Below are positions 661-18,500 of a stretch of 64,000 nt of DNA, piece by piece. The DNA is from Candidatus Curtissbacteria bacterium (GTDB lineage: Bacteria; Patescibacteriota; Microgenomatia; Curtissbacterales; GWA2-41-24). The position numbers and the translations under genes are program-made. The stretch covers positions 1,303-65,302 of the forward strand of contig JACPEV010000009.1 of the NCBI GenBank assembly GCA_016183325.1, read 5' to 3'. The notes beneath the pieces are model-generated. The model saw only the letters and a list, made by a program, of their open reading frames with translations. It had not been told where the DNA came from and did not search any database. Within the stretch, counting starts at the first letter, position 1, and every line of letters begins with the position of its first letter.

Positions 661-700
661 AAAATAAAAAAGGAGCACTTGCCAGAAAGGAGTGACATAG

Positions 701-1510: not shown

Positions 1511-1529
1511 ATCCGAAATCCGAAGTACG

Positions 1530-1880
1530 AAATCATTGTATGAAGAAATTAGTTACTGGAAATTAGAAAATTGTAATGGAAAGTAGAAAATAGAAAATGG
1601 ATAATAAATTATAACTATTTTCCAATCTCAATCTGCCATTTCCAATTTCCAGTTTCTAGAAACTATTTTCTAGAATACAGAATTGTTTCGAATTTCGATA
1701 TTCGAATTTCGAATTTTCAATAAATCTGGAGGTTGCAAAGCAAAATTTAATAACTAAATAGACCATTAACGATTAACAATAAACGATACACGTTAATTGG
1801 TGGGACGCCTGAAAACATCTAAGGAGCCCCGCCTTTTTGGTACGAAAACATAAGTTTATTAAGTAGTTTTAATAACGAGC
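1530..1880. repeat. Unusual 370-nt rpsJ-rplC spacer with long imperfect dyad symmetry and a tandem cgaatttcga motif
   Basis: ctggaaattagaaaat...ggaaagtagaaaatagaaaatgg mirrored by ccatttccaatttccagtttctag; cgaatttcgatattcgaatttcgaatttt. Confidence 0.4.
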
Positions 1881-2654
1881 ATGATAAATACATTGTTAGG
1901 TATCAAAAAAGAAATGTCGGCAAGATTCGATCGGTTTGGTCGACGACTGCCGGTGACAGAAATTTATGCCGAGCCCAACATAGTCGTTGTTCAAAAGGAT
2001 GGGAGAATCTTAATTGGAGCTGGGCAAAAAAAGAGAGCCAGAAAAACCGAGAATGCCTTTGTTCAGGCAGCCGGTTTTGCGCCAAGGCTGGTTAAAGAAG
2101 TAAAAGTTGATCAACAAGAAATCAAGCCGGGAACTAAAGTCGATGTATCCATATTTGGACCGGGAGACGAAGTCAAAATAACCGGAGTAACCAAGGGAAA
2201 GGGATTTACAGGCGTTGTCAAAAGATGGGGTTTTGCCGGAGGTCCGAAGACTCACGGACAAAGCGATCGTCATCGTGCACCAGGTTCAATCGGCCAAACC
2301 ACCACACCTGGCAGGGTTTATAAAGGCAAAAAGATGGCTGGCCATATGGGTGTAGCCAAATTAACAATTACGGGGCTTGAAGTCATAGAAGTGGATGCCA
2401 AAAGCAATCTACTTATTGTAAAAGGTTCGGTTCCTGGTGCCAGAAACGGTTATTTGGTAATCGAAAAAACGGGAAAAGTAAAGGGGTACACTCCGCCCCC
2501 TGAACCAAAAGAGGAGCCGGAAGAAGAAGTTAGATCAGAAAAGACTGCAACCGCTGAAAACGCTGAAAAGAACACTGAGAACACTGAAAATCCAGGAGGA
2601 TACCCCCGGAGTGAAGTCGAGGCGTTTCCTGGAAAACACCCCGGGGGTGAGTAA
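1881..2654 (+). CDS. rplC: 50S ribosomal protein L3 with ~45-aa C-terminal extension
   Basis: ...GKGFTGVVKRWGFAGGPKTHGQSDRHRAPGSIG... L3 core; extension ...ENAEKNTENTENPGGYPRSEVEAFPGKHPGGE. Confidence 0.95.
   Translation: MINTLLGIKKEMSARFDRFGRRLPVTEIYAEPNIVVVQKDGRILIGAGQKKRARKTENAFVQAAGFAPRLVKEVKVDQQEIKPGTKVDVSIFGPGDEVKITGVTKGKGFTGVVKRWGFAGGPKTHGQSDRHRAPGSIGQTTTPGRVYKGKKMAGHMGVAKLTITGLEVIEVDAKSNLLIVKGSVPGARNGYLVIEKTGKVKGYTPPPEPKEEPEEEVRSEKTATAENAEKNTENTENPGGYPRSEVEAFPGKHPGGE
2637..2649. repeat. In-frame palindrome caccccgggggtg (encodes HPGGE) in the rplC 3' end
   Basis: 17-nt acaccccgggggtgagt is identical to 17902-17918 in rplM; related cacccccggggtg at 48945 in purL. Confidence 0.6.
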
Positions 2655-2662
2655 AGACCGCA

Positions 2663-3481
2663 ATGTCAAACAAAAAGCAAAAAAGATCCAAAATCGCTAA
2701 GACCCGTATCAAAACCGGATCTAAAACCATAGATAAAAAAAAGATCACAGAAGGCACTGAAAATAAATTGAAGGCACAGAAAAGAACGGCTAAAAAATCA
2801 GCGCCCTCAAATATCTCAGTACCTTCAGTGATCACAAAACAATCAGGACCCTCAAAACTTGCAATCAAATCAGTATCCGCTAAAGTCTTTAATATGCAGG
2901 GTAGGGGCCTAGGTGTCGTTGCCCTCCCTAAAGCAATTTTTGGACATTTGCCAAATCAAAATTTACTTGCTCAAGCCATCAGGGTCTATGTGGCCAACAG
3001 TCATCCGCACACGGCTCACACTAAAACTCGAGCGGAAGTCGCCGGCGGAGGCACCAAACCTTGGCGCCAAAAAGGCACTGGCAGGGCTCGAGCCGGATCA
3101 ATCCGTTCACCGCTTTGGGTTGGTGGAGGCACGACTTTTGGTCCAAGGACAAAAGATACCAAGCTTTCACTGCCTAAAAAAATGAAGCATAAAGCATTAA
3201 TTGACGCGCTATCTGCAAAAGCTAAAGCTGGCGACATCAAAGTGATTTCAAATATTGAAAAAGTAGAGCCAAAAACCAAAAAGATTGCCACACTCTTGAA
3301 AAAGTTAGATGTTGGTAAAAATACTCTTCTTATTGTTTCCGAAAGAACCAAGAACGTTCATTTAGCCACACGTAACATCCCAAATATTAAAGTAGACATA
3401 CCTTCAAACCTAAACGCCTACGAAGTTACTAAAAATAATGACTTGTTAATCTCAAAGGAATCCCTACCCAAATTTAAATGA
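2663..3481 (+). CDS. rplD: 50S ribosomal protein L4 with Lys-rich ~75-aa N-terminal extension
   Basis: ...[42 protein letters not shown]... L4 core; start 9 nt after the rplC stop. Confidence 0.9.
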
Positions 3482-3801
3482 AACCAACTGACCTAATTAA
3501 AACATCAATCCTTTCCGAAAAAGCTTACAAGCAGATGGAAAATGGTATCTATACATTCTTGGTTGATAAGAGGTCAACCAAGAATCAAATAGTCAAAGCC
3601 GTCGAAAATCAATTCGCCGTTAATGTCATTCGGGTTAACGTATCTAAAAAATCTTTCAAGATGAAAAGAATTGGCAGGACTCGAAAACAAGCAAAAGTAG
3701 GCGGCGGCAAAAAAGCCATTGTCTATCTTAAAGCAGGCCAAAATATCGCAATTCTAAGTCCATCTAAAAAAGAAACTAAAAGCATTAAAAAGGAGAAATA
3801 A
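3478..3801 (+). CDS. rplW: 50S ribosomal protein L23
   Basis: L23-like sequence and operon position. Confidence 0.9.
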   Translation: MKPTDLIKTSILSEKAYKQMENGIYTFLVDKRSTKNQIVKAVENQFAVNVIRVNVSKKSFKMKRIGRTRKQAKVGGGKKAIVYLKAGQNIAILSPSKKETKSIKKEK

Positions 3802-4623
3802 ATGTTTAAAATTTCCAAACCCACAACTCCAGGACAAAGATTTAAATCGACTTTATCCTTCGACGAGATAACAAAAACCAAACCGGAAAAATCCTTAATC
3901 GCAAGGCTTAACAAGACAGCTGGTAGGTCGCTGGGAATTGTTACAGTCAGAGGAAAGGGGGGAGGTGCCAAACGAAATTTAAGATTTATAGATTTTAAAA
4001 GAGATAAAAGAGATGTCGTGGCAAAAGTAGCGGCGATTGAATACGATCCAAACAGATCTGCCAATATTGCTCTCCTTCACTATGTTGATGGAGAAAAAAG
4101 ATACATCCTATCCCCGGTTGGTCTTGCTGTTGGGCAGGAAGTTATCGCCAGCGAAAAAGCGCCAATTAAGACCGGTGATGCCCTGCCGCTTGGCAAAATG
4201 CCAGTTGGCACTGTCATTCATAATATTGAGCTTACGCCAGGTAGCGGTGGTCAAATTGTCAGATCTGCCGGCGTCGGTGCAATCGTTGCCGCCAGAGAAG
4301 GAGAATATGTCCACGTTAAACTTCCTTCAAAAGAGATTCGCAAGATTAGTGCTGCAAGTTTTGCCACAGTAGGTCAAGTTGGCAACGTTGATTGGAAAAA
4401 TATCAAAATCGGAAAAGCAGGAAGATCAAGACATATGGGTAAAAGGCCTAAAGTTCGAGGAGTTGCCATGGATCCAAGATCACATCCCCACGGTGGTGGA
4501 GAAGGCAGATCCGGCACGGGTATGCATCCCAAAACCAGAACAGGCAAACCTGCCATGGGCAAAAAAACCCGAAATCCCAACAAACCATCAAGTAGATTTA
4601 TTCTTGAGAGGAGAAAGAAATGA
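3802..4623 (+). CDS. rplB: 50S ribosomal protein L2
   Basis: ...[34 protein letters not shown]... L2. Confidence 0.95.
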
Positions 4624-4630
4624 TTTTTAC

Positions 4631-4701
4631 TGTCATTCTGGGGAGTGAAACGACTCCAGAATCAAAATACGAAAAAAGATTCTGGTCAAGCCAGAATGAC
4701 A
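4631..4701 (+). repeat. Inverted-repeat structured element, copy 2 (same TIRs as 541-660), 71 nt
   Basis: tgtcattctgg 4631-4641 and ccagaatgaca 4691-4701; starts 8 nt after the rplB stop; internal hairpins ggagt-gaaac-gactcc and tctggtcaagccaga. Confidence 0.6.
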
Positions 4702-4720
4702 ATAAACTAAAGGAGAAAAA

Positions 4721-5056
4721 ATGACAGCAGAGCATTTTAAGGACACTATTAATTACGACACTGTGAGGCTCAAAAATATAGACGCTGTGTATGAAAATAG
4801 TGCAGCTATTGCTCCGGAACGGACGATTTTAATTGCGACTGGGATTGATGGAGAAACAGATTATCAGTTTGAGAGATTAGCAAGGACTCACGAGGAGGCA
4901 CAAGAATATATTCAGAGTCAAAACGAGTCAGGCACAAGAATCATAGGTAGACCGGCCGACCCGTTAGCTGCTGAAGTTTGGAAGACAATTAGGTATTACG
5001 ACTTTGGTGTCGGAATTTGGAAGCAAATAGAAACATTAGAAAGGATGGATCAATGA
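4721..5056 (+). CDS. Hypothetical protein (111 aa) inserted between rplB and rpsS
   Basis: Strong RBS aaggagaaaaaATG; 4-nt ATGA overlap with the rpsS start; no recognisable motif. Confidence 0.55.
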
Positions 5057-5337
5057 GTAGATCGAGTAAGAAAGGTCCTTATGTAGATGCAAAGTTACTC
5101 AAAAAGGTCTTGAGCCAGAAGGAGTCTGGCAAGAAGGAGCCGATTAAAACTTGGGCAAGAGCCAGCCAAATTCCTCCGGAATTTGTCAACCACACATTCT
5201 CGGTGCATAACGGTCGCGTATTTATAAACGTTTTTGTGTCAGAAGGTATGGTCGGCCACAGACTTGGCGAATTTGCTCCGACCCGAGTTTTTAGAGGTCA
5301 CGGAAAGATTACAGAGAAAGCAAGAGCAAAGAAGTGA
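5053..5337 (+). CDS. rpsS: 30S ribosomal protein S19
   Basis: [12 protein letters not shown]...HNGR...[12 protein letters not shown]19; start chosen at the internal ATG matching the canonical S19 N-terminus. Confidence 0.9.
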
Positions 5338-5400
5338 TTAATCAATTAGTTATGAGAAGTATAGAACTAAACTACTCATTACTAAACTGCTCATAACAAA

Positions 5401-5844
5401 ATGATAGTTACCGCTACAGCTAAAAATGTCAGATTATCGCCCGAAAAGGCTCGTCTCGTCGTGGCGCAAATAAAAAAAATGAAGCCTTCCTATGCGATTG
5501 CAATTTTAGATCATGTTCACAAATCTTCATCACCAATTCTAAAAAAGGTGATCAAATCTGCCATTGCCAATGCTAAGAATAATTTCAATTTGGATGAGAA
5601 AACACTTACCTTTAAAGAAATTTTAGTTGGAAAAGGCCCGGTTTTTAAAAGATATAGAGCCGTCGCCAGAGGTAGAGCCCATTCTATTTTAAAGCGAACA
5701 AGCAATATAAAAGTGGTTTTAGAAGGAGAAAAAACAAAAGAGGTATCAAAAGTATCACAGGTACCAGAAGTATCACAGGACAAATCAAATATACGAGAAC
5801 GTATTTTTGATAAATCGAAAAGTAAAGATCAAAAATCAAAATGA
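5401..5844 (+). CDS. rplV: 50S ribosomal protein L22 with C-terminal extension partly encoded by a dispersed repeat
   Basis: L22 core ...RYRAVARGRAHSILKRTSNIKVVLEG...; tail ...NIRERIFDKSKSKDQKSK overlaps the repeat at 5783-5846. Confidence 0.9.
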   Translation: MIVTATAKNVRLSPEKARLVVAQIKKMKPSYAIAILDHVHKSSSPILKKVIKSAIANAKNNFNLDEKTLTFKEILVGKGPVFKRYRAVARGRAHSILKRTSNIKVVLEGEKTKEVSKVSQVPEVSQDKSNIRERIFDKSKSKDQKSK

Positions 5845-5846
5845 CA
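5783..5846. repeat. 62-nt dispersed repeat, copy 1 (diverged), containing the TTTT(T/C)GAT-AA-ATCGAAAA palindrome
   Basis: Aligns to 6589-6648 and 14445-14504. Confidence 0.6.
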
Positions 5847-5943
5847 AACCTATATTTATTGTTAGACTCATCACTCATCACTTACTCGCCTCGCTTCGCT
5901 CGCGAAGCGGGTCACTCATCACTACCGACCGAAGGGAGGTCTT

Positions 5944-6582
5944 GTGGGCCAAAAAGTTAATCCTATTGGTTTTAGATTAGGCAATGTTTATACATGGAGC
6001 TCTCGTTGGTTTGCCAAAAAAGGAAACTTCAGCCAGTATCTTCTGGAAGATCAAAAAATTAGAAAGTTTATTATGGATCATTTAAAAGCTGCTGGTGTCT
6101 CAAAAGTCGAAATTGAGCGTTCTTTCGATAAAAGAACTATTATCATTCATGTTTCAAGGCCAGGAGTTGCCATCGGTCGAGGCGGTACTGGCCACGAGCA
6201 ACTAAAGCTTAGTCTTGTAAAAATATTTAAAATCTCAGACCCTAATAAACTGGAAATAAAGTTCGAAGAAATTAAAAGTCCGGATCTAGATGCTTACCTA
6301 GTTGCCACAAACGTCGCAGACCAACTCGCAAAAAGACTCCCTTTCAGAAGAGTCATGAATCAAGCTCTTGAAAGAGTAAAAAGGTCAGGCGCAAAAGGTG
6401 TCAGGATTTCTACGGCTGGAAGATTAGGAGGTTCTGAAATTGCCAGGCGCGAAACTTTAAAGGATGGATCAATTCCACTGCACACCCTAAGAGCTCAGAT
6501 CGATTTTGCCAAAGTCGATGCCAAAGTTCCAAGAGCCGGCATCATCGGTGTTAAGGTCTGGATTAATAAGGGAGAATCATGA
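5944..6582 (+). CDS. rpsC: 30S ribosomal protein S3 (GTG start)
   Basis: MGQKVNPIGFRLG... S3; RBS gggagg. Confidence 0.95.
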   Translation: MGQKVNPIGFRLGNVYTWSSRWFAKKGNFSQYLLEDQKIRKFIMDHLKAAGVSKVEIERSFDKRTIIIHVSRPGVAIGRGGTGHEQLKLSLVKIFKISDPNKLEIKFEEIKSPDLDAYLVATNVADQLAKRLPFRRVMNQALERVKRSGAKGVRISTAGRLGGSEIARRETLKDGSIPLHTLRAQIDFAKVDAKVPRAGIIGVKVWINKGES

Positions 6583-6588
6583 TAAATC

Positions 6589-6648
6589 AAAAATCAAATA
6601 TACCAAAGCGTATTTTCGATAAATCGAAAAGCAAAAATCAAAATGACA
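6589..6648. repeat. 62-nt dispersed repeat, copy 2
   Basis: aaaaatcaaatataccaaagcgtattttcgataaatcgaaaagcaaaaatcaaaatgaca; near-identical to 14445-14504. Confidence 0.7.
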
Positions 6649-6765
6649 TGTAAAAATTTAAAAACTATAAAATCCAAAATTGTAGCTTGCTTTGCAAGTA
6701 CAATTTTGTCCATTAAGGGAAAGGGAATATTAAGGGAAAACCGCTAGGTTTGCCCTTAAAGTTAT

Positions 6766-7173
6766 ATGTTAGCTCCCAAAAGAGCAAAATATAGAAAACA
6801 ATTTAGAGATAAAAGAAGGGGTATTGCTACTCGTCGCACAACTTTGGCTTTTGGAGCATATGGGCTTAAAAGTCTGGAAAGTGCATGGATAACCGCAAGG
6901 CAAATAGAAGCGGCCAGGCGAGCAATGACTCATTACACCAAAAGAGGCGGACGCATCTGGATAAGAATTTTTCCGGATAAACCCGTTACTAAAAAACCGG
7001 CAGAAACAAGAATGGGTTCCGGTAAAGGTGATGTCAATGAGTATGTTTCTGTAGTCAAACCTGGAATGGTGCTTTTTGAAATGGGTGCAATTGACAGCCA
7101 AACTGCCCAGGAAGCTTTAAAACTTGCCGCTTTTAAGTTACCGATCAAAACAAAAATAATAACCAGAATATAA
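6766..7173 (+). CDS. rplP: 50S ribosomal protein L16
   Basis: [19 protein letters not shown]... L16. Confidence 0.95.
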
Positions 7174-7186
7174 ATTATTTGAAATT

Positions 7187-7402
7187 ATGAAAAAGAAAGA
7201 AAAAGAAGAACTAAAAGCTAAAAATACAAGTCAACTGAAAGAAATTCTAAAAGAAAAAGAAAAGGGGCTTATTGTTGATCAAATAGAGTTGAAAATGGGC
7301 AAAATTAAGAATGTTCATATTGTTCATAATAAGAAAAAGGATATTGCGACAGTTAAAACAATGCTAAAAGCCGCAATCTTTAAAGAACAACAAGAAAAAT
7401 AA
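7187..7402 (+). CDS. rpmC: 50S ribosomal protein L29
   Basis: Position between L16 and S17; L29-like helical Lys/Glu-rich sequence. Confidence 0.8.
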   Translation: MKKKEKEELKAKNTSQLKEILKEKEKGLIVDQIELKMGKIKNVHIVHNKKKDIATVKTMLKAAIFKEQQEK

Positions 7403-7408
7403 ATATCT

Positions 7409-7639
7409 ATGCCACAAATAAGGGTGGGAAAAGTTATTGGAACCAAAATGCAAAAAACAATAATTGTTGAAATTATGGGAGTGACAAAACACCCACTTTA
7501 TAAAAAACAAATTAAAAGGACTACCAGACTCAAAGTTCATGACGAATTGGGTGTTAAGGTAGGCCAAAAAGTAAAAATTCAAGAAACGAGACCAATTTCA
7601 AAAGATGTCCACTTTAAAACACTGGAGGTTGTGTCATAA
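7409..7639 (+). CDS. rpsQ: 30S ribosomal protein S17
   Basis: MPQIRVGKVIGTKMQKTIIVEI... S17. Confidence 0.9.
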   Translation: MPQIRVGKVIGTKMQKTIIVEIMGVTKHPLYKKQIKRTTRLKVHDELGVKVGQKVKIQETRPISKDVHFKTLEVVS

Positions 7640-8008
7640 ATGCTTGCCAGAAGATCACATTTAACAGTTGCAGACAATAGTGGCGCCAAAAGCTTAGTCG
7701 TAATAGGTTCAGAAAAGGGCTCTGGTAAAAGATTTATTCGACTTGGTGAAATTGCAACTTGTGTAGTCAAAGGAGCAGCTCCATTAGGTCAGGTAAAAGA
7801 TCATCAGATTGTTAAGGCGACAATTGTCAGGACTAAAAAAGAAACTCGGCGAGCCGATGGGTCATATATCAGATTTTCAGACAATGCCGCAGTTGTTTGT
7901 GATGATAATGGTATTCCGGCAGGAACCAGGATTTTCGGTCCGGTTGCCCAGGAGCTTAAACAAAAAGGTTTTACAAAAATTATTTCAATGGCTAAGGAGG
8001 TTTACTGA
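7640..8008 (+). CDS. rplN: 50S ribosomal protein L14
   Basis: ...LTVADNSGAK... L14. Confidence 0.95.
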   Translation: MLARRSHLTVADNSGAKSLVVIGSEKGSGKRFIRLGEIATCVVKGAAPLGQVKDHQIVKATIVRTKKETRRADGSYIRFSDNAAVVCDDNGIPAGTRIFGPVAQELKQKGFTKIISMAKEVY

Positions 8009-8314
8009 ATGTTTAAGTTTAAAATTGGAGACGAGGTAGTTGTGACGGCCGGTCGTGATAAAGGCAAAAGCGGCAAAGTCGAAAAAGTTCTTCTTTTTGA
8101 AAATAAATTAATTATTGCCGGAGTCAATATTTATAAAAGACATCGCAAGGTCACAAGAACCCAAGCCGCGGGAATTTACGAGATCGCCAGACCCATATCT
8201 CTTGCCAAGGTTGCCCTCGTTTGTCCCAAATGCGGCAAAACGACCAGAGTAGGTTTTAAATCCGAAGGGAATAAGAAAAATAGGATCTGCAAAAAATGCA
8301 AAGGAGTAATATGA
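8009..8314 (+). CDS. rplX: 50S ribosomal protein L24 with C-terminal 4-Cys zinc-ribbon tail
   Basis: KOW core KIGDEVVVTAGRDKGKSGKV; tail CPKCGK...CKKCKG. Confidence 0.9.
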   Translation: MFKFKIGDEVVVTAGRDKGKSGKVEKVLLFENKLIIAGVNIYKRHRKVTRTQAAGIYEIARPISLAKVALVCPKCGKTTRVGFKSEGNKKNRICKKCKGVI

Positions 8315-8859
8315 CAAACATAATCTCGAAATATCAAGATGAGGTTTTAACCAAGTTAAAACAAGAATTCAATCTTAAAAATGACCTTTCTGTTCCAAGA
8401 CTTGCAAAAATTGTCATAAATTCGGGCGTAGCGGAGGGAATTACCAATAAAGAAGTCGTTGGCAAAGTTCAAGAACAACTAGAAAAAATTTCTGGCCAAA
8501 GACCTAAAATCACTCATGCCAAAAAAGCCATTTCTACTTTTAAATTAAAGAAAAACGACCCTATTGGTGTAATGGTAACTCTTCGAGGTACAAGAGCGTG
8601 GCATTTTCTCGAAAAGTTGATTAATATTGTCGTTCCAAGGATGCGTGATTTTCGAGGACTCGCTCAGGAAAACTTTGATAAGTTTGGTAACTATAGTTTG
8701 GGAATATCAGAACAAATCATTTTTCCAGAAATCGACTATAGCAAAATTGATAAGATTAGAGGTTTAGTAATTACGATCGTTTTCAAAAATAGTGACAAGC
8801 AAAAATCTCAAAGAGTCATGGAACTTTTAGGCGTACCTTTTAAAAAAGGAGATAATTAG
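8311..8859 (+). CDS. rplE: 50S ribosomal protein L5
   Basis: L5 sequence; ATG overlaps the rplX TGA (ATGA); RBS aaaggag. Confidence 0.9.
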   Translation: MTNIISKYQDEVLTKLKQEFNLKNDLSVPRLAKIVINSGVAEGITNKEVVGKVQEQLEKISGQRPKITHAKKAISTFKLKKNDPIGVMVTLRGTRAWHFLEKLINIVVPRMRDFRGLAQENFDKFGNYSLGISEQIIFPEIDYSKIDKIRGLVITIVFKNSDKQKSQRVMELLGVPFKKGDN

Positions 8860-8891
8860 ATATAAAAATTTCTGCCCAGTAATCTAAGAAA

Positions 8892-9077
8892 ATGGCCAAA
8901 AAATCAAAAATTGTAAAAAATGATAAAAAACAAAAATATGAAGTCCGTCACAGAAATCGATGCCGACTCTGCGGTCGACCAAGAGGTTATTTGCGTAAAT
9001 TTGGGATTTGTCGATTGTGTTTCCGAGATTTAGCTCATCGTGGAGAAATTCCGGGAGTTAAAAAAGCATCATGGTAA
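8892..9077 (+). CDS. rpsN: 30S ribosomal protein S14, zinc-binding type Z
   Basis: 61 aa with CRLCGRP...CRLCFR. Confidence 0.9.
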
Positions 9078-9167
9078 TTAAAAAGATTACACAGATCTAT
9101 AGCGGATTACCACAGATTATCCGCGCAAATCCGCCATCAATCCGCGGTAATCATACAAAGGAGTCAA

Positions 9168-9542
9168 ATGGATCCAGTTGCTGACATGCTGACTATTATC
9201 AAAAATGGATATATGGCTAAAAAACCAGAAGTTTTTGTGACATATTCCAAGTTTAAACTTGCCATAGCAAGTATTTTGGAAAAAGAAGAATTTATTGGCA
9301 AGGTAGAAAAACAAGATGCCAAAATTAAAATTAGCCTCTTGTATCAAAATCAAAAACCCAAAGTTACACAGATCAAGAGAATTTCTAAATTGGGTCTTAG
9401 GATTTATACCAGAAGCAAAAACATAAAAAATATTAAAGGTGGAAAAGGTTTAGTCATTGTCTCAACATCCCAAGGCGTCATGAATGCAAAAGAAGCAAAA
9501 TCAAAAAATCTGGGAGGAGAGATCATCTGCCAATTATGGTAG
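9168..9542 (+). CDS. rpsH: 30S ribosomal protein S8
   Basis: MDPVADMLTIIKNG... S8. Confidence 0.9.
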   Translation: MDPVADMLTIIKNGYMAKKPEVFVTYSKFKLAIASILEKEEFIGKVEKQDAKIKISLLYQNQKPKVTQIKRISKLGLRIYTRSKNIKNIKGGKGLVIVSTSQGVMNAKEAKSKNLGGEIICQLW

Positions 9543-9551
9543 AAAAGACGT

Positions 9552-10103
9552 ATGTCCAAAATCGGTAATCAACCTATTTTAATTCCTAAAGATGTAAAAG
9601 TGATCGTCAATGATTCACAGGTGAGTGTTAGCGGTCCCAAAGGTGATTTAACTTTTCACCTTCATAATCAGGTTTCAGTAAAAGTAGAAGATGACAAAAT
9701 GAAAATTATTAGAATATCTGAAAGTAAATTCGCAAAATCTCTTCACGGTTTAACCAGAAGTCTTATTGCCAATATGGTGAAGGGAGTAACTGAAGGTCAC
9801 CAAAAAACTTTAGAATTAGTTGGTGTTGGTTATAGAGCCGCCAAACAAGGTGAAAATTTAACTCTAAGCGTGGGTTATTCGCATCCTGTTGTTATAGAAC
9901 ACATCCCAGGAATTCAAATTGAAACAAAAGAAAATAAAATCACTGTTTCGGGAATTGATAAAGCTCTTGTTGGTGAAGTGGCTGCCAAAATTAGAAGAGT
10001 TAGACCGCCCGAGCCTTATAAAGGTAAAGGGATTAAATATGTTGAAGAAATTATTAAGCGTAAGGCTGGTAAAACTGTTAAAACTGCCCAGGGTGCAATA
10101 TGA
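9552..10103 (+). CDS. rplF: 50S ribosomal protein L6
   Basis: L6 sequence and position. Confidence 0.9.
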   Translation: MSKIGNQPILIPKDVKVIVNDSQVSVSGPKGDLTFHLHNQVSVKVEDDKMKIIRISESKFAKSLHGLTRSLIANMVKGVTEGHQKTLELVGVGYRAAKQGENLTLSVGYSHPVVIEHIPGIQIETKENKITVSGIDKALVGEVAAKIRRVRPPEPYKGKGIKYVEEIIKRKAGKTVKTAQGAI

Positions 10104-10456
10104 AAAACGTCAAACTATCTCATAGAAAAATAAGACACCAAAGACTGAGAAAAAAAATTACAGGGAACTCTCAAGTTCCCAGACTTGTAGTCTTTCGTTC
10201 TAATAAACATATTTACGCTCAAATTATCGATGATACCCAAGGGAAAACTTTAATTGCCACCACCGATCTTTCAAAGCCAAAAAAAGTGGGAAAAATCACC
10301 AAAATTGAGAAATCGTTTCAAGCAGGAGAAAATTTAGCTAAAGCTGCCATCAAAAAAAATATTAAAAAAGTTGTTTTTGACAGGGCCGGTTATCACTTTC
10401 ATGGTAGAGTTAAATCTCTGGCCGAAGGGGCCCGAAAAGGAGGACTGCTTTTTTAA
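10100..10456 (+). CDS. rplR: 50S ribosomal protein L18
   Basis: L18 sequence and position. Confidence 0.9.
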   Translation: MKNVKLSHRKIRHQRLRKKITGNSQVPRLVVFRSNKHIYAQIIDDTQGKTLIATTDLSKPKKVGKITKIEKSFQAGENLAKAAIKKNIKKVVFDRAGYHFHGRVKSLAEGARKGGLLF

Positions 10457-10915
10457 ATGTACCAGCAAAATTTTCAATCATCACAAATTAAAGAATTTGA
10501 AGAAAAAGTCGTTCAGGTTAATCGTATTTCAAAAAAAACCACCGGGGGCAATAAATTTGGTTTTTCAACTATTGTAGTTGTCGGAGACAAAAAAGGAAGA
10601 GTTGGTGTTGGTTTAGGTAAAGCTCCCGATGTTGCTTCAGCCATTAGAAAAGGCGCCAGTTACGCCAAAAAGCATTTGATTACAGTTCCTATCGTCAAGG
10701 GCACTATCCCCTACGATATTTTAATCAAAAGAGGTGCCGCCAGAGTACTTTTAAAACCAGCAAGAGAAGGATCTGGAATTATTGCTGGTGGCGCTGTTCG
10801 GGCAGTTGTCGAAGCAGCTGGTATCAGAAACATTTCAAGTAAAGTCCTGGGAACCAAAAATCAAGCTTCAAATGTATATGCCACTCTAGAAGCATTAAGA
10901 AGTCTTAAAACATGA
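10457..10915 (+). CDS. rpsE: 30S ribosomal protein S5
   Basis: ...GGNKFGFSTIVVVGDKKGRVGVGLGKA... S5; followed directly by rplO with no L30 gene. Confidence 0.95.
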   Translation: MYQQNFQSSQIKEFEEKVVQVNRISKKTTGGNKFGFSTIVVVGDKKGRVGVGLGKAPDVASAIRKGASYAKKHLITVPIVKGTIPYDILIKRGAARVLLKPAREGSGIIAGGAVRAVVEAAGIRNISSKVLGTKNQASNVYATLEALRSLKT

Positions 10916-11364
10916 AACTTAACACTTTACCAAAAATAGTTGAAAGATCATCAAAAAGAGTCGGACGGGGTCCCGGATCAGGTAGAGGAAAAACTTCTGG
11001 TCGCGGTACCAAGGGCCAAAATGCCAGAAACAAACTGCCGATCACCCATGCACACTTTGAGGGAGGTCAAAGACCCCTGTTTAAAAGACTTCCTTATAAA
11101 AGAGGTAAAGGTAATCCCAAAATTTCTAAAAAGCCAATTATTGTCAATTTAGAAGTACTCAATCTTCTACCCAAAACTATTTCCAATATTGATCTCGATA
11201 CTCTTGCCAAATTTGGCATTGTTAAAGCCCAGGACGCCAAAAGTTACGGAGTCAAGATTTTAGGCGATGGCAATTTACAAAGACCCATGGTTATAAATCT
11301 TCCAACTTCCAAAAGTGCTGCTCAAAAAATCGCCAAATCCGGCGGCAAGGTAATTAAGTCATGA
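10912..11364 (+). CDS. rplO: 50S ribosomal protein L15
   Basis: ...[21 protein letters not shown]... L15. Confidence 0.9.
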
Positions 11365-12644
11365 ACAGTTATCTACAAATATTACTCAAAGTTTTTAAAG
11401 TTAAAGACTTAAGAAGGAAAATTCTTTTCAGTGCTCTTATCTTTCTAGTTTTTAGAATTTTTGCTCATGTGCCTGTTCCAGGTGTGGATCTCGAATCTTT
11501 AAGAAGGTTATTTCAAGAAAGCCAACTTTTGTCTCTACTGGATCTCTTTTCGGGCGGTACTCTCGCAAACTTTTCAGTTATGTCACTGGGACTTAACCCC
11601 TATATTAATGCCAGCATTATTATGCAACTGCTGCAATTAGTTTTTCCCAAACTGGAGGAGTTAGCCAAAGAAGGAGAATCCGGTCGCGAAAAAATCAATC
11701 AATATACTCGTTACTTAACTGTACCTTTAACTGTTATCCAAGCTTTTGGAATGTACATATTACTTCAAAATTCCCAAATTATTAATCAAGTTACTCCCAT
11801 AACTCTTATTTCCATTGTTATGTCTATGACAGCGGGCACTATACTCCTGATGTGGTTAGGTGAACTTATTTCCGAAAAAGGCATCGGTAATGGCATTTCC
11901 ATGGTAATCTTTGCGGGTATAGTCGGCAGGCTCCCCGTAGGGCTGGCCCAGACAGTTTCAATTCTAGACCCTTCGCAAATTAGAAATATTCTAATTTTTA
12001 TCGCTATGGCCCTGATTGTAATTGTTTCAATTGTCACTGTTACAGAAGCAAGACGTCCAATTCAGATTCAATACGCCAGACGGGGGGAAAACCCAACCGG
12101 CCCTACAAGCTATATTCCATTGCGAGTTAATCAGGCCGGAGTAATTCCTATCATTTTTGCAGTTTCGCTAATCCTTCTTCCCACAACTTTTGCTAGATTT
12201 TTTGAAACTTCTCCAAATGTTGCCATTGCCAATATTGCCCAAAATGTTCAAAGAATCTTTAATCCTGAAGGAATTTTGTACAACTTAAATTACTTTTTGT
12301 TAGTAGTTGCCTTTACTTACTTTTACACCACAGTCGCTTTTAATACCAAACAATTATCCGAGATGCTCATGAAACAAGGGGGTTTTATTTCAGGTATAAG
12401 ACCGGGATCACCGACTAAATCTTTTCTGGATTATGTCTCTCTTAGAGTGACCTTATTTGGCGCAATTTTTTTGGGATTAATTGCCATACTGCCCTCTATT
12501 GGCCAAAGCCTAACCGGAGTAACCACTCTTTTAATTGGCGGTACAGGTCTTTTGATCGTGGTTTCAGTCGTACTTGAGACGACTAAACAAATTGAATCTC
12601 ACCTAGTTATGAAAGACTACGATACCTTTTTGAGAAAAAGATAA
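11361..12644 (+). CDS. secY: Preprotein translocase SecY
   Basis: 427-aa polytopic protein with SecY motifs at the canonical position. Confidence 0.9.
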
Positions 12645-12647
12645 ATT

Positions 12648-13211
12648 ATGAAGTTAATATTTTTAGGCAGTCAAGGTTCCGGCAAGTCTACACAGGCAAA
12701 AATGCTTGCCCAGAAACTGGGCATACCCGCCATCGAAATGGGCCAGCTTTTACGAGAAAAGGCCAAGAAAAATGATATAGAAGCAGGAGAAATTAGGCAA
12801 GCTATTCAGACGGGTAATCTCGTCCCAGACGTCATTACTGTAAGAACTTTACAGGAAAGAATTTCACGCCCCGATTGCCAAAGCGGCTATGTTCTGGATG
12901 GTTACCCTAGAAACTATGCTCAGCTCGAAGGCTTAGATGACGACATAGATGTTGTTTTCGATATCAAAGTCTCCGATCAAGAAGGGATTAAAAGACTAAT
13001 CGATCGTTCTCGACATGACGACAGTCTAGAAGTTATTACCAGAAGGTTAGCCATTTTTCATAAAGAAACTGAACCGTTACTAGCTTACTTTAGAAATAAA
13101 GGGATTCTTGAAGAGGTAGATGGCGCAAGAAGTATCGAAGAAATTCACCAGGATGTTGTTAAAAGAATCGAAAAATATAAAACAAAGGACCATGCAAACA
13201 GTAAAATCTAA
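12648..13211 (+). CDS. adk: Adenylate kinase
   Basis: GSQGSGKSTQAK P-loop; canonical position after secY. Confidence 0.9.
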   Translation: MKLIFLGSQGSGKSTQAKMLAQKLGIPAIEMGQLLREKAKKNDIEAGEIRQAIQTGNLVPDVITVRTLQERISRPDCQSGYVLDGYPRNYAQLEGLDDDIDVVFDIKVSDQEGIKRLIDRSRHDDSLEVITRRLAIFHKETEPLLAYFRNKGILEEVDGARSIEEIHQDVVKRIEKYKTKDHANSKI

Positions 13212-13941
13212 AAAGGAGATTGAACTGATGAAAATTTCTGGAAAAATCTGCGCAGAAGCTTTAAAAAAGGTAATCGAGAATATTAAAGTAGGAGTTAGCG
13301 GTAAATATTTAGATGAAATTGCCGCCTACGAAATTAAAAAAAGAAAAGCCAGCCCGTCTTTTGTAACTGTGGGCGATTATAAGTGGACAATTTGCACAAC
13401 TATTAATAATCAAGTAGTTCATGGGATACCAAGCGACAGAATTTTAAAAAACGCTGATATTTTGGGAATTGATATCGGAGCGATCTATAAAGGTTATCAC
13501 AGTGATATGGCCATCTCGCTTGGCGTGGGTCAAATTACAGAAAGTGCCAAGCGATTTTTAGAGGTAGGGCAACAGACTTTAAAAGCCGCCATCAAACAAG
13601 CCAGAGTCGGTCAAAAAATTGGCGATATTTCCCAGACTATCCAGCATGGTGTTGAGGCCGTCGGCTATTCAGTCGTTAAAAGCCTAACGGGTCACGGAAT
13701 CGGCCGTCAGCTTCATGAAGATCCAATGGTCCCATGTTTTGGCAAAAAAAATACCGGTCAAAAAATCCTAGAAAATATGGTATTGGCAATCGAGGTCATT
13801 TACGCACAAGGTTCGGGAGAGGTTAAATTGGAAAAAGATGGATGGACCATCTCCACAGTTGATGGGTCACTCGGAGGACTATTTGAACAGACCGTCGCTG
13901 TCACTAAAAACGGCCCTATAGTCTTGACGCCCTACCTATGA
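13192..13941 (+). CDS. map: Methionine aminopeptidase type I
   Basis: N-terminus KSKKEIELMKISGKICAEAL aligns to the MAP start; overlaps the adk end by 20 nt. Confidence 0.85.
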   Translation: MQTVKSKKEIELMKISGKICAEALKKVIENIKVGVSGKYLDEIAAYEIKKRKASPSFVTVGDYKWTICTTINNQVVHGIPSDRILKNADILGIDIGAIYKGYHSDMAISLGVGQITESAKRFLEVGQQTLKAAIKQARVGQKIGDISQTIQHGVEAVGYSVVKSLTGHGIGRQLHEDPMVPCFGKKNTGQKILENMVLAIEVIYAQGSGEVKLEKDGWTISTVDGSLGGLFEQTVAVTKNGPIVLTPYL

Positions 13942-14076
13942 GCCTGTTACAATATTCGAATGTTTACGAATGAGAATAATCCGAATAAATCCGAATATTC
14001 AGTTACGAGTTTGAAATTGTACCCCATTGTCACATTAGGATAAATTCGGACTATTACTATTCGGATATATTAGAAT

Positions 14077-14319
14077 ATGTTAAAACCCGGCGTAATTGAA
14101 GTTGAAGGTGAAGTCACAGAGGCCCTGCCAAATACAATGTTTCGAGTGGCCGTAGCACCCGGTCAGCTCCCAAGTATTGAAGAGCAAAAAATTGTTCTAT
14201 GTCACCTCTCTGGTAAAATGCGCATTAACTATGTCCGCATATTGCCCGGAGACAAAGTCAGAGTTGAAATGACACCTTACGATTTAACCAAAGGAAGGAT
14301 AACCTTTAGATATAGATGA
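14077..14319 (+). CDS. infA: Translation initiation factor IF-1 (with ~9-aa insertion)
   Basis: ...[18 protein letters not shown]...[36 protein letters not shown]. Confidence 0.9.
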
Positions 14320-14320
14320 T

Positions 14321-14434
14321 ATGAAAGTACAAGCTTCAATAAAGAAACGTTGCATAAACTGCAAAATTATAAAAAGAAAGGGGAGACTGTACGTTATTTG
14401 TACCAATCCCCGTCATAAACAACGACAAGGATGA
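14321..14434 (+). CDS. rpmJ: 50S ribosomal protein L36 (37 aa; absent from the ORF track)
   Basis: Manual translation [37 protein letters not shown]. Confidence 0.85.
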
Positions 14435-14444
14435 TAGTTAATTT

Positions 14445-14504
14445 AAAAATCAAATATACCAAAGCGTATTTTCGATAAATCGAAAAGCAAAAATCAAAAT
14501 GACA
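14445..14504. repeat. 62-nt dispersed repeat, copy 3
   Basis: Near-identical to 6589-6648; followed by ttccattttccattttcaattttcca. Confidence 0.7.
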
Positions 14505-14565
14505 AGCAAAAACTTTCCATTTTCCATTTTCAATTTTCCATTAACTGCGACTGAAAGGAGCTATT

Positions 14566-14988
14566 GTGGCTAGAATCGCAGGAGTAGATTTGCCAAACGA
14601 AAAAAGAATTGAAGCCGCCTTGCCCTATATTTTTGGTATTGGCCCGACGCTGGCCAAAAAAATAATCGTTGATGCCAATATCGATCCTAATAAAAGAACT
14701 AAAAATTTATCAGAAGAAGAACTCGGCAAACTTCAGAGGAAAGTTGAAGAATACAGGGTAGAAGGGGATTTAAGACGCGAAATTCAGGGAAATATTAAAA
14801 GATTGCAAGAAATTGGGTCTTATAGAGGCATAAGACACGCCAAAAACCTGCCCGCCCGCGGCCAAAGAACAAGGACAAATGCCAGAACCAAAAGAGGCAA
14901 AAGAATAACTATCGGTACCATTAGAAAAGACGTTGTTCAAAAGACAGAAACTACACCAGCCAGAGAGCCAGCAGGGGAGAAAAAGTAG
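14566..14988 (+). CDS. rpsM: 30S ribosomal protein S13 (GTG start)
   Basis: [26 protein letters not shown]... S13. Confidence 0.9.
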
Positions 14989-15384
14989 ATGGCAAAAAAT
15001 ACCAAAAAGCCTAAGAAAAATACTGAAGAAAAGGTAATCTCAGGTCGTGGACGGGCCTATGTTACCGCAACTTTTAACAACACACTTGTAACCATAACTG
15101 ACACAATTGGCAACACTCTCGTATGGGGATCAGCTGGCGCCGCCGGATTTAAGGGTGCCAGAAAATCGACCCCTTACGCCGCTACAACTGCTGTCGAGCA
15201 AGTAGCCAGACGTGCAAAACAAAAAGGTATAGAAAGTATAGAGGTCTACATAAAAGGTCCAGGACCGGGAAGGGACGGAGCAATTCGTGCGTTTAAGTCA
15301 GCAGGAATCGATATTGCAATGATTGCCGACGTCACGCCAATTCCTCACAATGGTCCGAGAGCCAGTAAAAGGAGACGCGTATAA
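14989..15384 (+). CDS. rpsK: 30S ribosomal protein S11
   Basis: S11 sequence and position. Confidence 0.9.
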
Positions 15385-15992
15385 TGGCACGTTATACAGG
15401 ACCAAAACATAAACTCTGTCGAGCAGAAGGTGTTGCACTTTGTGGATCACCTAAATGTCCTGTCATTAGAAAAAACGCTGGACCACCGGGACAACATGGT
15501 CAAAAGGGTCGAAGAAAACCTTCAGAATATAGAGTCCAACTTAGAGAAAAGCAAAAGGTTAAAAGGATGTACGGAGTTTTAGAAAGACAATTTAAAAAAT
15601 ATTACACAAATGCTGCTGCAAGTTCGAAAGCCACGGGCGAAGCCCTTCTGGCAATTTTAGAAACTAGACTTGATAATGTTATCTATAAATTAAATTTAGC
15701 CAAAAGCCTTTCACAAGCAAGACAATTAGTTTCTCATGGCCATGTATTTGTCAATAATAAAAAAGTGACTATTCCTTCTTATAATGTTAAAATTGGCGAT
15801 ATTATTTCGCTGTCGGCAAAAGCTTCAAACTTTGATTTCATCCAAAAATTACAAGAAGAGACAAAAAACGAAAAATTACCTGTTTGGCTGGCTAAAAAAG
15901 CAACTGTAGGCAAAATTGTAAGTTCGCCAAAACGTGAAGATTTAACTACCGATGTCAACGAGAAACTAATCGTGGAATACTATTCTAGATAA
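15384..15992 (+). CDS. rpsD: 30S ribosomal protein S4
   Basis: [26 protein letters not shown]... S4. Confidence 0.9.
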   Translation: MARYTGPKHKLCRAEGVALCGSPKCPVIRKNAGPPGQHGQKGRRKPSEYRVQLREKQKVKRMYGVLERQFKKYYTNAAASSKATGEALLAILETRLDNVIYKLNLAKSLSQARQLVSHGHVFVNNKKVTIPSYNVKIGDIISLSAKASNFDFIQKLQEETKNEKLPVWLAKKATVGKIVSSPKREDLTTDVNEKLIVEYYSR

Positions 15993-16068
15993 TATGGAAA
16001 AAAATAAGGAAGAGGAATACTAAGGGGAAACCGAAAGTGTCCCCTTAGATTTAAAGGAGGTGAAATAA

Positions 16069-16989
16069 ATGCTCGATTTATCACAAGTTGAAGTCGAAAC
16101 AGAAAAAGAAACTGCTGATTTTGGTAGATTTGTAATCAAGCCACTAGATCAAGGCTATGGCCATACCATTGGCAATACTTTACGACGGGTTCTTTTGACA
16201 TCAATTCCGGGGGCAGCTATTACTCAAGTTAAAATTGCTCAAGTTCGACACCAGTTCTCATCTGTCCCAGGTATGTCCGAAGATGTAGTTGAGTTGATTT
16301 TGAATCTCAAAAAAATTAGATTAAAAATTTCAAGCGACAAACCAGTTAAATTGCTCTTAGATCAAAAAGGCCCAAAAATTGTTTTAGCAAAAGACATAGA
16401 GAAAGCAGCAGGGGTTGAAATCGTCAATGATGATCTTGTTTTAGCTCACCTTTCGGACGCGAAATCTAAATTAAGCGCCCGACTAGTTGCCGAAAATGGC
16501 ACTGGTTACTCGCTGGCAGATGAAAGAAAAACTGGCGAAATAGGTGTTATTCCAATTGATGCAAATTTTTCATCGGTTGTTCGAGTTAACTACAAAGTAG
16601 AAGCGACACGCGTCGGTAGATTGACGAGTTATGACAAATTAACGATTGAAATCACTACTGATAAAACGATTAAATCATCAGAAGCCCTAAAAAAAGCGGC
16701 TAAAATTTTAGTCGATCATTTTATGACAGTCTATCAACCGCAAACTGGTGGTGTTAAAAAGACTAAAGTTGACCAAAGTCCGCCAAGCGAGGATGTCCTT
16801 AAAACTTCTCTGGAAGAATTAGATTTACCGGTACGCCTTACTAACAGTCTCAAATCTGGGAAAATTGAAACTATCGGGGATTTTTTACAAAAAGACAGAA
16901 AAGACCTTCTAAAGATGAAGAATATGGGACCAAAATCAGTAAGCCTAGTTGAAGAGAAGCTTTTAGAAAAGGGGATTAAAATAAAGTGA
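16069..16989 (+). CDS. rpoA: DNA-directed RNA polymerase subunit alpha
   Basis: 306 aa, RpoA N- and C-terminal domains, canonical position. Confidence 0.9.
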   Translation: MLDLSQVEVETEKETADFGRFVIKPLDQGYGHTIGNTLRRVLLTSIPGAAITQVKIAQVRHQFSSVPGMSEDVVELILNLKKIRLKISSDKPVKLLLDQKGPKIVLAKDIEKAAGVEIVNDDLVLAHLSDAKSKLSARLVAENGTGYSLADERKTGEIGVIPIDANFSSVVRVNYKVEATRVGRLTSYDKLTIEITTDKTIKSSEALKKAAKILVDHFMTVYQPQTGGVKKTKVDQSPPSEDVLKTSLEELDLPVRLTNSLKSGKIETIGDFLQKDRKDLLKMKNMGPKSVSLVEEKLLEKGIKIK

Positions 16990-17480
16990 AACACAAAGTA
17001 TCAGGCCAAAAACTAGGGCGCGACACCAGCGGTAGAAAAGCCTTGTTAAGAAATTTGGCAAGTGAACTTGTTGCAAAAGGCGCAATTATTACAACCTTAG
17101 CAAAGGCTAAATTTGCGCGCCCTTACATAGAAAAACTTGTAACTTCAGCAAAGATTAATCGGCTCACGAAACACAGAAGTCTCGAATCGCGACTTACACA
17201 CCAAGCATTTATTAGACTCCAAAGTGAAATTGGCCCCGGTTTTAGAAGTAGGGCTGGAGGTTACACCAGAATTATAAAATTAGGCATCAGAAAAGGTGAC
17301 GCTGCTCCGCTTGCAAGACTGGAGTTTCTGCAATGGGAAAAGACCCCAACCGCTAAAGTGCAAAAGTCACCAAGAAAAACCATCAATCGGCGTAAATCCG
17401 CTATAAACTTGTCCCGAGCGCCACTAGTGAGCGAAGTCGAACTGAAGTCGAGGAATCAGCGCTCATCTGCGAAATTATGA
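16986..17480 (+). CDS. rplQ: 50S ribosomal protein L17 with C-terminal extension (GTG start)
   Basis: L17 core; basic tail ...KVQKSPRKTINRRKSAINLSRAPLVSEVELKSRNQRSSAKL. Confidence 0.85.
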   Translation: MKHKVSGQKLGRDTSGRKALLRNLASELVAKGAIITTLAKAKFARPYIEKLVTSAKINRLTKHRSLESRLTHQAFIRLQSEIGPGFRSRAGGYTRIIKLGIRKGDAAPLARLEFLQWEKTPTAKVQKSPRKTINRRKSAINLSRAPLVSEVELKSRNQRSSAKL

Positions 17481-17974
17481 AAAACGTTAAACCAAAAGAT
17501 ATAAAGCGAAATTGGCATTTACTTGATGCCAAAAATAAGATTTTAGGCAGACTTGCCTCAGAAATCTCTCTAATTTTAATGGGTAAAAACAAAAGTTATT
17601 ACACACCATATTTAGACACAGGAGACTATGTAGTTGTCATCAATGCAAAAGAAATTGTATTTTCTGGAAAAAAAGAAAGACAAAAACAATATTGGCATCA
17701 TAGCCAATATCCAGGAGGGATGCATGTAAAATCAGTTTCAGTCCTGAGAAATAAAAAACCAGAAGAGCTAATAAGACACGCAGTTGGCGGTATGATTCCA
17801 AAAACCAAACTTGGCAAAGATATGATGAAAAAACTTTTTATTTTTTCAAATAGTAATCATCCATATCAAGACAAATTTGCAACCACTGAAAAACCAGATG
17901 AACACCCCGGGGGTGAGTCAGGATCAAAGATGCATGCTAAATCGGGACCACCCCCAGCGGTTGCAATAAAATGA
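17477..17974 (+). CDS. rplM: 50S ribosomal protein L13 with C-terminal extension containing the HPGGE palindrome
   Basis: L13 core; tail ...KPDEHPGGESGSKMHAKSGPPPAVAIK. Confidence 0.9.
   Translation: MKNVKPKDIKRNWHLLDAKNKILGRLASEISLILMGKNKSYYTPYLDTGDYVVVINAKEIVFSGKKERQKQYWHHSQYPGGMHVKSVSVLRNKKPEELIRHAVGGMIPKTKLGKDMMKKLFIFSNSNHPYQDKFATTEKPDEHPGGESGSKMHAKSGPPPAVAIK
17904..17916. repeat. In-frame palindrome caccccgggggtg in the rplM 3' end
   Basis: Identical 17-mer to 2635-2651. Confidence 0.6.
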
Positions 17975-18438: not shown

Positions 18439-18500
18439 TCTTCCGGCAATTCTCCTGATAATATTATTTAATTATTAATCGTGTGCAAGTATAATTATCT

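Follow-up and report, generated by a model that had tools for sequence, protein, structure and literature searches.

The window analysed here is a 64,000-nucleotide stretch of a Candidatus Curtissbacteria genome (contig JACPEV010000009.1, positions 1,303 to 65,302), which belongs to the Microgenomates of the candidate phyla radiation (CPR). It carries a ribosomal superoperon in which a short palindromic repeat occurs three times, within the 3'-end of rplV, in the spacer between rpsC and rplP, and in that between rpmJ and rpsM (Table 1). The gene order of the window has no L30 between S5 and L15, an absence that is typical of CPR bacteria. A first-pass annotation of this DNA had offered three explanations for the repeat: a regulatory site such as an operator, a transcription attenuator, or a small mobile repeat. 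We define the conserved part of the repeat, follow it into related genomes and metagenomes, and weigh these explanations against one another; the last is the only one of the three that fits the data.

Table 1. Copies of the repeat in the window and the genes that host or adjoin them.
Feature	Position	Strand	Description
Copy 1 core	5793..5822	+	30 nt, ACGAGAACGTATTTTTGATAAATCGAAAAG; apparent in-frame insertion in the rplV tail
Copy 2 core	6602..6631	+	In the 183-nt rpsC-rplP spacer
Copy 3 core	14458..14487	+	In the 131-nt rpmJ-rpsM spacer
Copy 1 composite	5774..5850	+	Words gacaaat caaatat, core, words taaagat caaaaat caaaatg; from repeat search and heptamer parsing
Copy 2 composite	6589..6648	+	aaaaat caaatat, core, caaaaat caaaatg aca; identical to copy 3 (60 nt)
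Copy 3 composite	14445..14504	+	60 nt, same sequence as copy 2
rplV (L22, 147 aa)	5401..5844	+	Pfam Ribosomal_L22, residues 5-108; lineage-variable C-terminal tail hosts copy 1
rpsC (S3)	5944..6582	+	Pfam KH_2 and Ribosomal_S3_C; 5' neighbour of copy 2
rplP (L16)	6766..7173	+	Pfam Ribosomal_L16; 3' of copy 2
rpmJ (L36)	14321..14434	+	Pfam Ribosomal_L36; 5' neighbour of copy 3
rpsM (S13)	14566..14988	+	Pfam Ribosomal_S13; 3' of copy 3

A repeat search placed the copies at 5774-5850, 6583-6659 and 14439-14515, with identities to the reference copy of 71% (ungapped), 100% and 94%, respectively. Copies 2 and 3 agree at 60 of 60 nucleotides across their composites and at 94% across 77 nt, so that the near-identity reported for them in the first-pass annotation is confirmed, as are, by Pfam, the S3, L16, L36 and S13 genes said to flank them. 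The composite of copy 1 includes the rplV stop codon (5842-5844). The palindrome within the repeat, TTTTCGAT-AA-ATCGAAAA, is perfect in copy 2 (6613-6630) and copy 3 (14469-14486), and the earlier description of perfect 8-bp arms split by AA holds for these two; in copy 1 (5804-5821) a single C-to-T change leaves a G-T or G-U wobble. Matches to the palindrome with up to three mismatches number seven in the window against 0.53 expected, a count that none of 100 shuffled sequences reached.

The unit that is conserved is wider than this 18-bp palindrome and smaller than the 62-mer originally put forward; the repeat is real, but its conserved part is a core of 30-32 nt and the rest is an array of heptamer words. 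Amongst the aligned copies, conservation begins 13 nt left of the palindrome and ends one base, a G, beyond its right end. The core is made up of two abutting hairpins, ATACG-AGAG-CGTAT followed by TTTCGA-TAAA-TCGAAA-AG, the first having a 5-bp stem and a 4-nt loop and the second a stem of 6-7 bp, a TAAA loop and the trailing G, and it can fold in this way either as single-stranded DNA (ssDNA) or as RNA. A covariance model of the core, R1, scores 53.4 bits at copy 1 (5791-5822) and 52.6 bits at both copy 2 (6600-6631) and copy 3 (14456-14487) and, with its filters off, finds no fourth copy in the 64-kb window.

To place the core in a wider context, its 20/21-mer was scanned across GTDB species genomes and JGI metagenomes, which gave matches in two Curtissbacteria genomes (L001 and L013) and at about nine more distinct metagenome sites. 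Outside the window there are about ten further independent copies, which lie at non-orthologous places in Curtissbacteria genomes and unassigned metagenome contigs and face either way relative to genes. True copies, which have the left hairpin and the trailing G in common, score 50-57 bits with R1, whereas chance matches to the 21-mer (L019, L024, L029 and L036) score 30-39 bits; a match within an NRAMP-like gene (L027) scores only 32 bits and was left unclassified. A scan of viral contigs returned two chance matches only, both with unrelated flanks, one identical to L029 and the other resembling a chance match from Bacteroidales (L010). In the literature we found no report of such repeats from Curtissbacteria or from any other CPR bacteria.

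Comparison of the copies shows that pairing is kept where bases are not. Across ten distinct aligned copies 96.4% of the cells are paired, in three pairs both partners have changed, the observed covariation score is reached by none of 500 column shuffles, and sliding the partner columns gives pairing of 14-58%. The variants of stem 1 found in different genomes (ATACG-AGAG-CGTAT, ATATG-AGTG-CATAT and ATAAG-AGAG-CTTAT) all stay complementary, the fourth pair being C-G, U-A or A-U depending on the genome. L041, the one copy found by a route other than the 20/21-mer scan, via L22 homology, has TTTCAGA-TAAA-TCTGAAA where others have TTTTCGA...TCGAAAA, which amounts to two compensatory pair changes. 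Copies from the same genome share both the stem-1 variant and the flanking word; the window copies and L032 share ATACC/ATACG...CGTAT and the word CAAAAAT, and four contigs of the metagenome sample Ga0210057 share ATATG...CATAT and AACNAAT.

Every copy lies between 7-nt words, mostly of the form NNNNAAT. In 11 of 13 copies, 0-2 positions distinguish the heptamer on the left of the core from that on its right, and the left flank ends in AAT or TAT, again in 11 of 13. The words are specific to a locus or a genome, for example CAAAAAT in the window and L032, AACNAAT in the Ga0210057 contigs and TGGTCAT/TGGAAAT in L026. Arrays of 7-8 nt occupy most spacers of the window, as at 1071-1147, 1509-1716, 5866-5882, 14514-14542, 41894-41920, 49301-49328 and 49738-49772, with AATAGCC, AAATCCG, TTTCGAA, TTTCCAT and ACTCATC amongst the spacer words; relatives use the same style of array with other words (CTATACA in L040, ACTTTTC in L042).

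The behaviour of the core can be followed at orthologous sites with and without it, which we compared by pairwise alignment (MAFFT misplaced the gaps). Copy 1 lies in-frame in rplV, where it encodes ...NIRERIFDKSKSKDQKSK before the stop, and its core corresponds to L22 residues 132-141 (RERIFDKSKS). When the tails of 120 L22 homologues were compared, that of the window read ...EVSQDKSNI-RERIFDKSKS-KDQKSK and that of P0060 ...EVSNEKSNIKDQKSK, each up to the stop; the tails of P0002, P0004, P0047 and P0096 are similar to that of P0060 and likewise lack the ten residues. The window L22 is 100% identical to an NCBI 50S ribosomal protein L22 of Candidatus Curtissbacteria bacterium, all its close homologues come from Curtissbacteria, and the end of the rplV DNA in L040, ...ATCAAAGATCAAAAATCAAAATGA, equals the window sequence 3' of the core. 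Judged from these alignments, the core of copy 1 is a clean 30-nt in-frame insertion in the L22 tail. The earlier claim that a diverged copy supplies the L22 C-terminus was therefore correct in placing the copy in-frame in the tail and too broad in its extent: the core adds only ten residues, relatives are exactly 10 aa shorter at this point, and the last residues of the protein, KDQKSK, are present in relatives that lack the core.

A second filled site lies in the gene for alanyl-tRNA synthetase (AlaRS). The alaS gene of L032 carries the 32-mer of copies 2 and 3 in-frame between the conserved EIWNDVFMEYD and QRNVDTGMG motifs, in a loop of the catalytic domain, at a place where 90 of 120 Curtissbacteria AlaRS have an 11-residue loop. 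Compared with the alaS of L045, which has heptamer words in common with it and no core, the difference is one 30-nt gap with near-identical flanks. Word arrays run in-frame through this loop in about 25 of the 120 proteins (KIKNQKSKIKN and RVKSQESRVKS, for example), and the central array slot of alaS also holds other hairpin inserts, such as TTTCC-AAAA-GGAAA in L043 and one of the TCCCGAGCGAAGTCGAGGGA type in L044. In L046 the slot contains, on the opposite strand, CTTGC-TTTGA-GCAAG and then TTTTC-TTGC-GAAAAG, the same two-hairpin layout in reversed orientation. Since the same core turns up amid different words, and arrays built of a single word hold different cores, we infer that core and word array are separable modules.

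The L044 insert is an in-frame member of a second family of small hairpins, GTCATYCTG...GCGAAG...CAGRATGAC, other members of which lie in spacers at 4630-4700 in the window, at about 8150-8190 in L020 and at about 4690-4730 in L034.

No target-site duplication was found at either the L22 or the AlaRS junctions, filled and empty sites differing by exactly 30 nt. A 7-bp target duplication was considered and dropped, as it calls for a difference of 37 nt at the L22 and alaS sites. The non-coding pair L023 and L025 differs by one extra heptamer and is ambiguous on this point.

Relatives without the core are known for all three positions it occupies in the window. The rpsC and rplP genes abut in L040 and in the P0060 contig, which leaves no spacer for copy 2, and the L22 gene and rpsC overlap in L049. 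L042 does have spacers at the window positions, yet R1 finds no match across its whole S10-spc-alpha cluster, and its rpmJ-rpsM spacer is coreless and built of other words.

These empty sites bear on the proposal that the 8-2-8 palindrome is a DNA operator, bound by a dimeric transcription factor that would control promoters internal to the ribosomal superoperon. In copies 2 and 3 the two arms match perfectly over 8 bp, and the hexamer ATGACA follows the composite in all three copies, 16-17 nt before TAGACT at copy 1 or TATAAA at copy 2. Copy 3, however, has no -10 partner, and promoter-like sites are no commoner in the window than in shuffled sequences (55 against 42 +/- 6). The conserved unit includes a second, unrelated hairpin with a covarying stem, and the arms of L041 change symmetrically, by complementarity, without base identity being kept. 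Some copies lie within coding loops and others downstream of antisense or convergent genes, and the operons of relatives lack the core, so that we consider an operator very improbable. An outward promoter within the repeat was rejected separately, the ATGACA hexamer not being general and copy 3 offering no -10 partner. More broadly, the regulatory role first suggested is not supported, given the coreless relatives, the mixed orientation of the copies and the copies inside coding regions, in alaS and the L22 tail, a location that the first-pass annotation had itself named as evidence against a regulatory site.

Where the copies lie, and which way they face, matters for a further explanation. 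The spacer copies are copies 2 and 3, L001, L013, L020, L025 and L026, and the coding copies are copy 1 and L041, both in L22, and L032 in AlaRS. L026 sits between rpsK and rpsD, genes that overlap in the window and abut in L042, and L025 between dnaE and rplS. Those in ribosomal protein operons (copies 1-3, L026, L041 and L025) are in the sense orientation, as are L001 and L032, and L013, L020, L021 and L034 are antisense to the adjoining genes. From the core to the next start codon it is 31 nt in the shortest case and about 140 nt in the longest.

The two-hairpin motif might be a functional RNA signal in the mRNAs of translation genes, serving as a protein-binding site, an RNase processing site or, like the REP (repetitive extragenic palindrome) hairpins of Escherichia coli, a 3'-end stabiliser, and having spread to several cistron boundaries. 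Pairing is maintained by compensatory changes; the C-to-T change of copy 1 leaves a G-U pair on the sense strand only; every copy in a ribosomal protein operon, including those before rpsD (L026) and rplS (L025), is in the sense orientation; and RNase Y is encoded in the window. Against this stand the same boundaries without the core in relatives, the four antisense copies, the in-frame copy within alaS, the variable distance to the start codon, the weakness of the stems and the lack of an Rfam match, and taken together these make an RNA signal unlikely. Rfam 15 has no family that reaches its gathering score in the 64-kb window, and at E<=1 the sole match in positions 1-20000 is to an unrelated miRNA model elsewhere in that region.

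The suggestion of an attenuator did not survive either, and an intrinsic terminator was rejected with it: the stems are A+U-rich and weak (-4 to -6 kcal/mol), they are followed by GCAAAAA with no U tract, and a terminator scan lists nothing at the cores. A coding mini-ORF was also discarded, L001 having no start codon in the matching frame and the open reading frame (ORF) at copy 3 running in another frame and stopping inside hairpin 2. At both spacer copies an ATG does overlap the upstream stop codon (ATGATA) and opens mini-ORFs of 24 and 15 codons (6579-6653 and 14428-14475), which read different frames of the repeat; the overlap with the upstream gene is probably coincidence. The layout recalls the small ORFs, overlapping neighbouring genes, of the MIRU repeats of mycobacteria.

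We conclude that the repeat is probably a miniature, non-coding palindromic element of the Curtissbacteria that is mobile or duplicative, on the grounds that the core is present or absent as a clean 30-nt block, that several genomes hold it at non-orthologous places and that copies within a genome resemble one another most. The core lies between units of the 7-nt word arrays and comes and goes whole, without target duplication. It is tolerated in-frame in essential genes, in the L22 tail and the AlaRS loop, because 30 is a multiple of three and five of the six reading frames are open through the core; operon spacers are other sites where it survives. The 60-nt composite of word, core and word appears to have been copied recently between the rpsC-rplP and rpmJ-rpsM spacers, since these spacers, otherwise unrelated, hold the same 60 nt at copies 2 and 3, an identity that points to recent copying and not to independent conservation. 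A dedicated regulatory role is not needed to explain the data, and the core may affect the structure or stability of mRNAs as a side effect.

One possible mover of such an element would be a hairpin-recognising ssDNA enzyme of the IS200/IS605 type or of the REP-associated tyrosine transposase (RAYT) type. Elements of the IS200/IS605 family have no terminal inverted repeats, are recognised by their stem-loops, produce no larger target duplications and insert 3' of a fixed short target (PMC2817692). Behaviour of this type would fit the core because of its clean junctions, its hairpins and the AAT that recurs at its left junction. A second live possibility is that gene conversion acts between similar word arrays; the window encodes recA.

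The latter process may also be thought to act without any transposition at all, the core being a passenger of array dynamics through homologous or slipped-strand exchange between similar heptamer arrays. Matching units do lie on both sides of the core, with 0-2 differences in 11 of 13 copies, same-genome copies sit in the same type of word, heptamer and octamer arrays fill most spacers, recA is present, and target duplications are absent. The homology arms, however, measure only 7-20 nt, the arrays around copies 2 and 3 are very short and their flanks otherwise unrelated, and the same core stands in very different words across genomes (GGTCATT, AACTAAT and TAAGTTCAGAAT), so that an array-independent transfer step is needed. 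Exchange by itself is, on balance, quite unlikely to be the whole explanation.

The mobile or duplicative reading can also be put in a bolder form, which is possible, if doubtful. Here the 30-nt core would be an ultra-small transposable unit, integrated and excised precisely at heptamer boundaries by a putative hairpin-specific enzyme, and its traffic would shape both the word-array spacers and the low-complexity insertions in essential proteins that typify Curtissbacteria. Such an enzyme could be an HUH/Y1 transposase or perhaps one of the reverse transcriptases that CPR genomes commonly encode, and the unit would share its array slots with other hairpin families. Few known mobile DNAs would be as small as the 30-nt unit if a dedicated enzyme does move it.

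Several points weigh against a mobile or duplicative element. No transposase, RAYT or integrase domain was found among the 41 ORFs of the window or the 10 neighbours of other copies, an inspection that covered about 250 kb of related sequence. Few copies were counted: three in the 64 kb of the window and one exact match to the core 20-mer in each of the two reference Curtissbacteria genomes. At the empty sites the core could have been precisely lost, and not gained at the filled ones. Copies upstream of rpsC, rplP, rpsM, rpsD (L026) and rplS (L025), with another inside alaS, suggest a possible bias toward translation genes; two of the nine independently found sites precede ribosomal protein genes, for which a rough binomial estimate gives a chance of about 7%, and we take this proximity as a hint, not proof, of a bias toward highly expressed genes. 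As to the hairpins themselves, hairpin 2 owes part of its invariance to the search pattern, stem 1 is broken by a C-C mismatch in copies 2 and 3, and the stems of the core are weak (z-scores of -1.2 to -2.9), so that the case for structure rests on covariation and not on energy.

Near copies of the core lie, once each, a GIY-YIG gene (L020) and an RVT_1 gene (L043). The latter, at 87-1070 of L043, encodes a 327-aa reverse transcriptase directly upstream of the alaS gene with the hairpin insert.

Amongst the known elements that it resembles are the Rickettsia palindromic elements (RPEs), which are 100-150 bp long and occupy both intergenic and coding sites, RPE-7 lying in phenylalanyl-tRNA synthetase (PMC1779305). 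Both are dispersed palindromic repeats with lineage-specific proliferation, found between genes and in-frame in essential genes, here those for AlaRS and L22. The present element differs in its size (a core of 30 nt and a longest shared composite of 60-77 nt), in its apparently low copy number, and in its unrelated sequence and host lineage. We know of no mobilising enzyme for the RPEs or for the present element, nor, to our knowledge, has a link to heptamer arrays been described for RPEs.

REPs have a conserved GT(A/G)G head, are rich in G+C, usually exceed 100 per genome, are extragenic and accompany a RAYT gene that is flanked by inverted REPs (PMC2817692); they are thought to be moved by a stem-loop enzyme of the IS200/IS605 type without target duplication (PMC2817692, PMC3116915). 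Like REPs, which measure 20-40 nt, our element is a short imperfect palindrome at cistron boundaries (30-32 nt, with 96% of the cells paired) that leaves no target duplication. In contrast to REPs it is A+T-rich, appears to have few copies and consists of two unlike hairpins in tandem; AT/AA-A-N-G begins all ten aligned copies, and GTAG or GTGG none of them, copies occur in-frame within rplV and alaS and not only outside genes, and no RAYT was found among the 41 window ORFs and 10 neighbours.

The small dispersed repeats (SDRs) of cyanobacteria are reportedly about 21-27 nt long, mobile and able to form hairpins. They share with the Curtissbacteria element their very small size, dispersal, hairpin potential and preference for specific short host motifs. 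They are restricted to the Nostocaceae, and SDR5 inserts at HIP1 (PMC5861425). The SDR sequences are unrelated to that of the present element.

[quoted passage not shown] Like MITEs, the element would be a small non-autonomous repeat that spreads within a genome and can occupy operon spacers; unlike them, its two ends belong to different hairpins and it shows no target duplication. It thus resembles RPEs, REPs or REPINs, and SDRs, while failing the defining features of RPEs (size), REPs (head and location, and perhaps copy number) and MITEs (terminal repeats and duplication).

CPR genomes are tiny and streamlined and little is known of their non-coding DNA; the element, which looks like a very small selfish repeat, shows that such repeats persist there. 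Ribosomal genes that overlap or abut in relatives are parted by spacers opened by these repeats (rplV-rpsC and rpsC-rplP). The repeats also lengthen essential proteins, L22 and AlaRS among them, by peptide segments, and explain part of the lineage-specific tails and loops of CPR proteins. Filled and empty sites offer a tractable marker for strain-level population studies, and conserved palindromes in Curtissbacteria genomes should not be taken for operators without caution.

The repeats probably also break short-read assemblies. Two Logan contigs, L017 and L018, which are independent short-read assemblies corresponding to 4634-5894 of the window, both end about 50 nt past the rplV stop codon, inside a CTCATCAC array, and the word arrays or repeats may be what interrupts them. 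The L22 gene of the window also occurs in the read sets SRR12113424 and SRR12113430.

Other features of the same operon may be variable in a similar manner. Between copy 2 and rplP lies a long A+T-rich hairpin (6676-6707, AAAATTGTAGCTTGC-TTT-GCAAGTACAATTTT), the inner part of which (6685-6699) is listed by the terminator scan. Immediately 5' of rplP is a 55-nt module (6710-6765), CCATTAAGGGAAAGGGAATATTAAGGGAAAACCGC.AGGTT..CCCTTAAAGTTAT, in which TTAAGGG can pair with CCCTTAA; it is kept in L042 (at about 4940-4995) and missing from L040 and the P0060 contig, in which rpsC abuts rplP, and could be an rplP leader or another inserted module. Upstream, a 111-aa orphan ORF (4721-5056) lies between rplB and rpsS and overlaps the start of rpsS; it matches no Pfam domain, and none of 1.84 billion representatives is homologous to it. 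In relatives the same slot holds unrelated ORFs (151 aa in L049, a partial one in L040) or, in L042, none, and it looks like a variable cargo position within the S10 operon.

Elsewhere in the window, a perfect direct repeat of 114 nt, rich in internal hairpins, occurs at 29079-29192 and 55393-55506, with a diacylglycerol-kinase gene downstream of one copy and a DUF1246/DUF1297 ATP-grasp gene downstream of the other. Rfam gives no match for it (29000-29300 at E<=1), and it may be another small repeat or a novel RNA. Finally, 40-nt direct repeats that are 80% identical (51505-51544 and 52142-52181) flank a 191-aa ORF (51565-52140) with a PaaX_M / Cas2-like domain, in a cassette-like layout.

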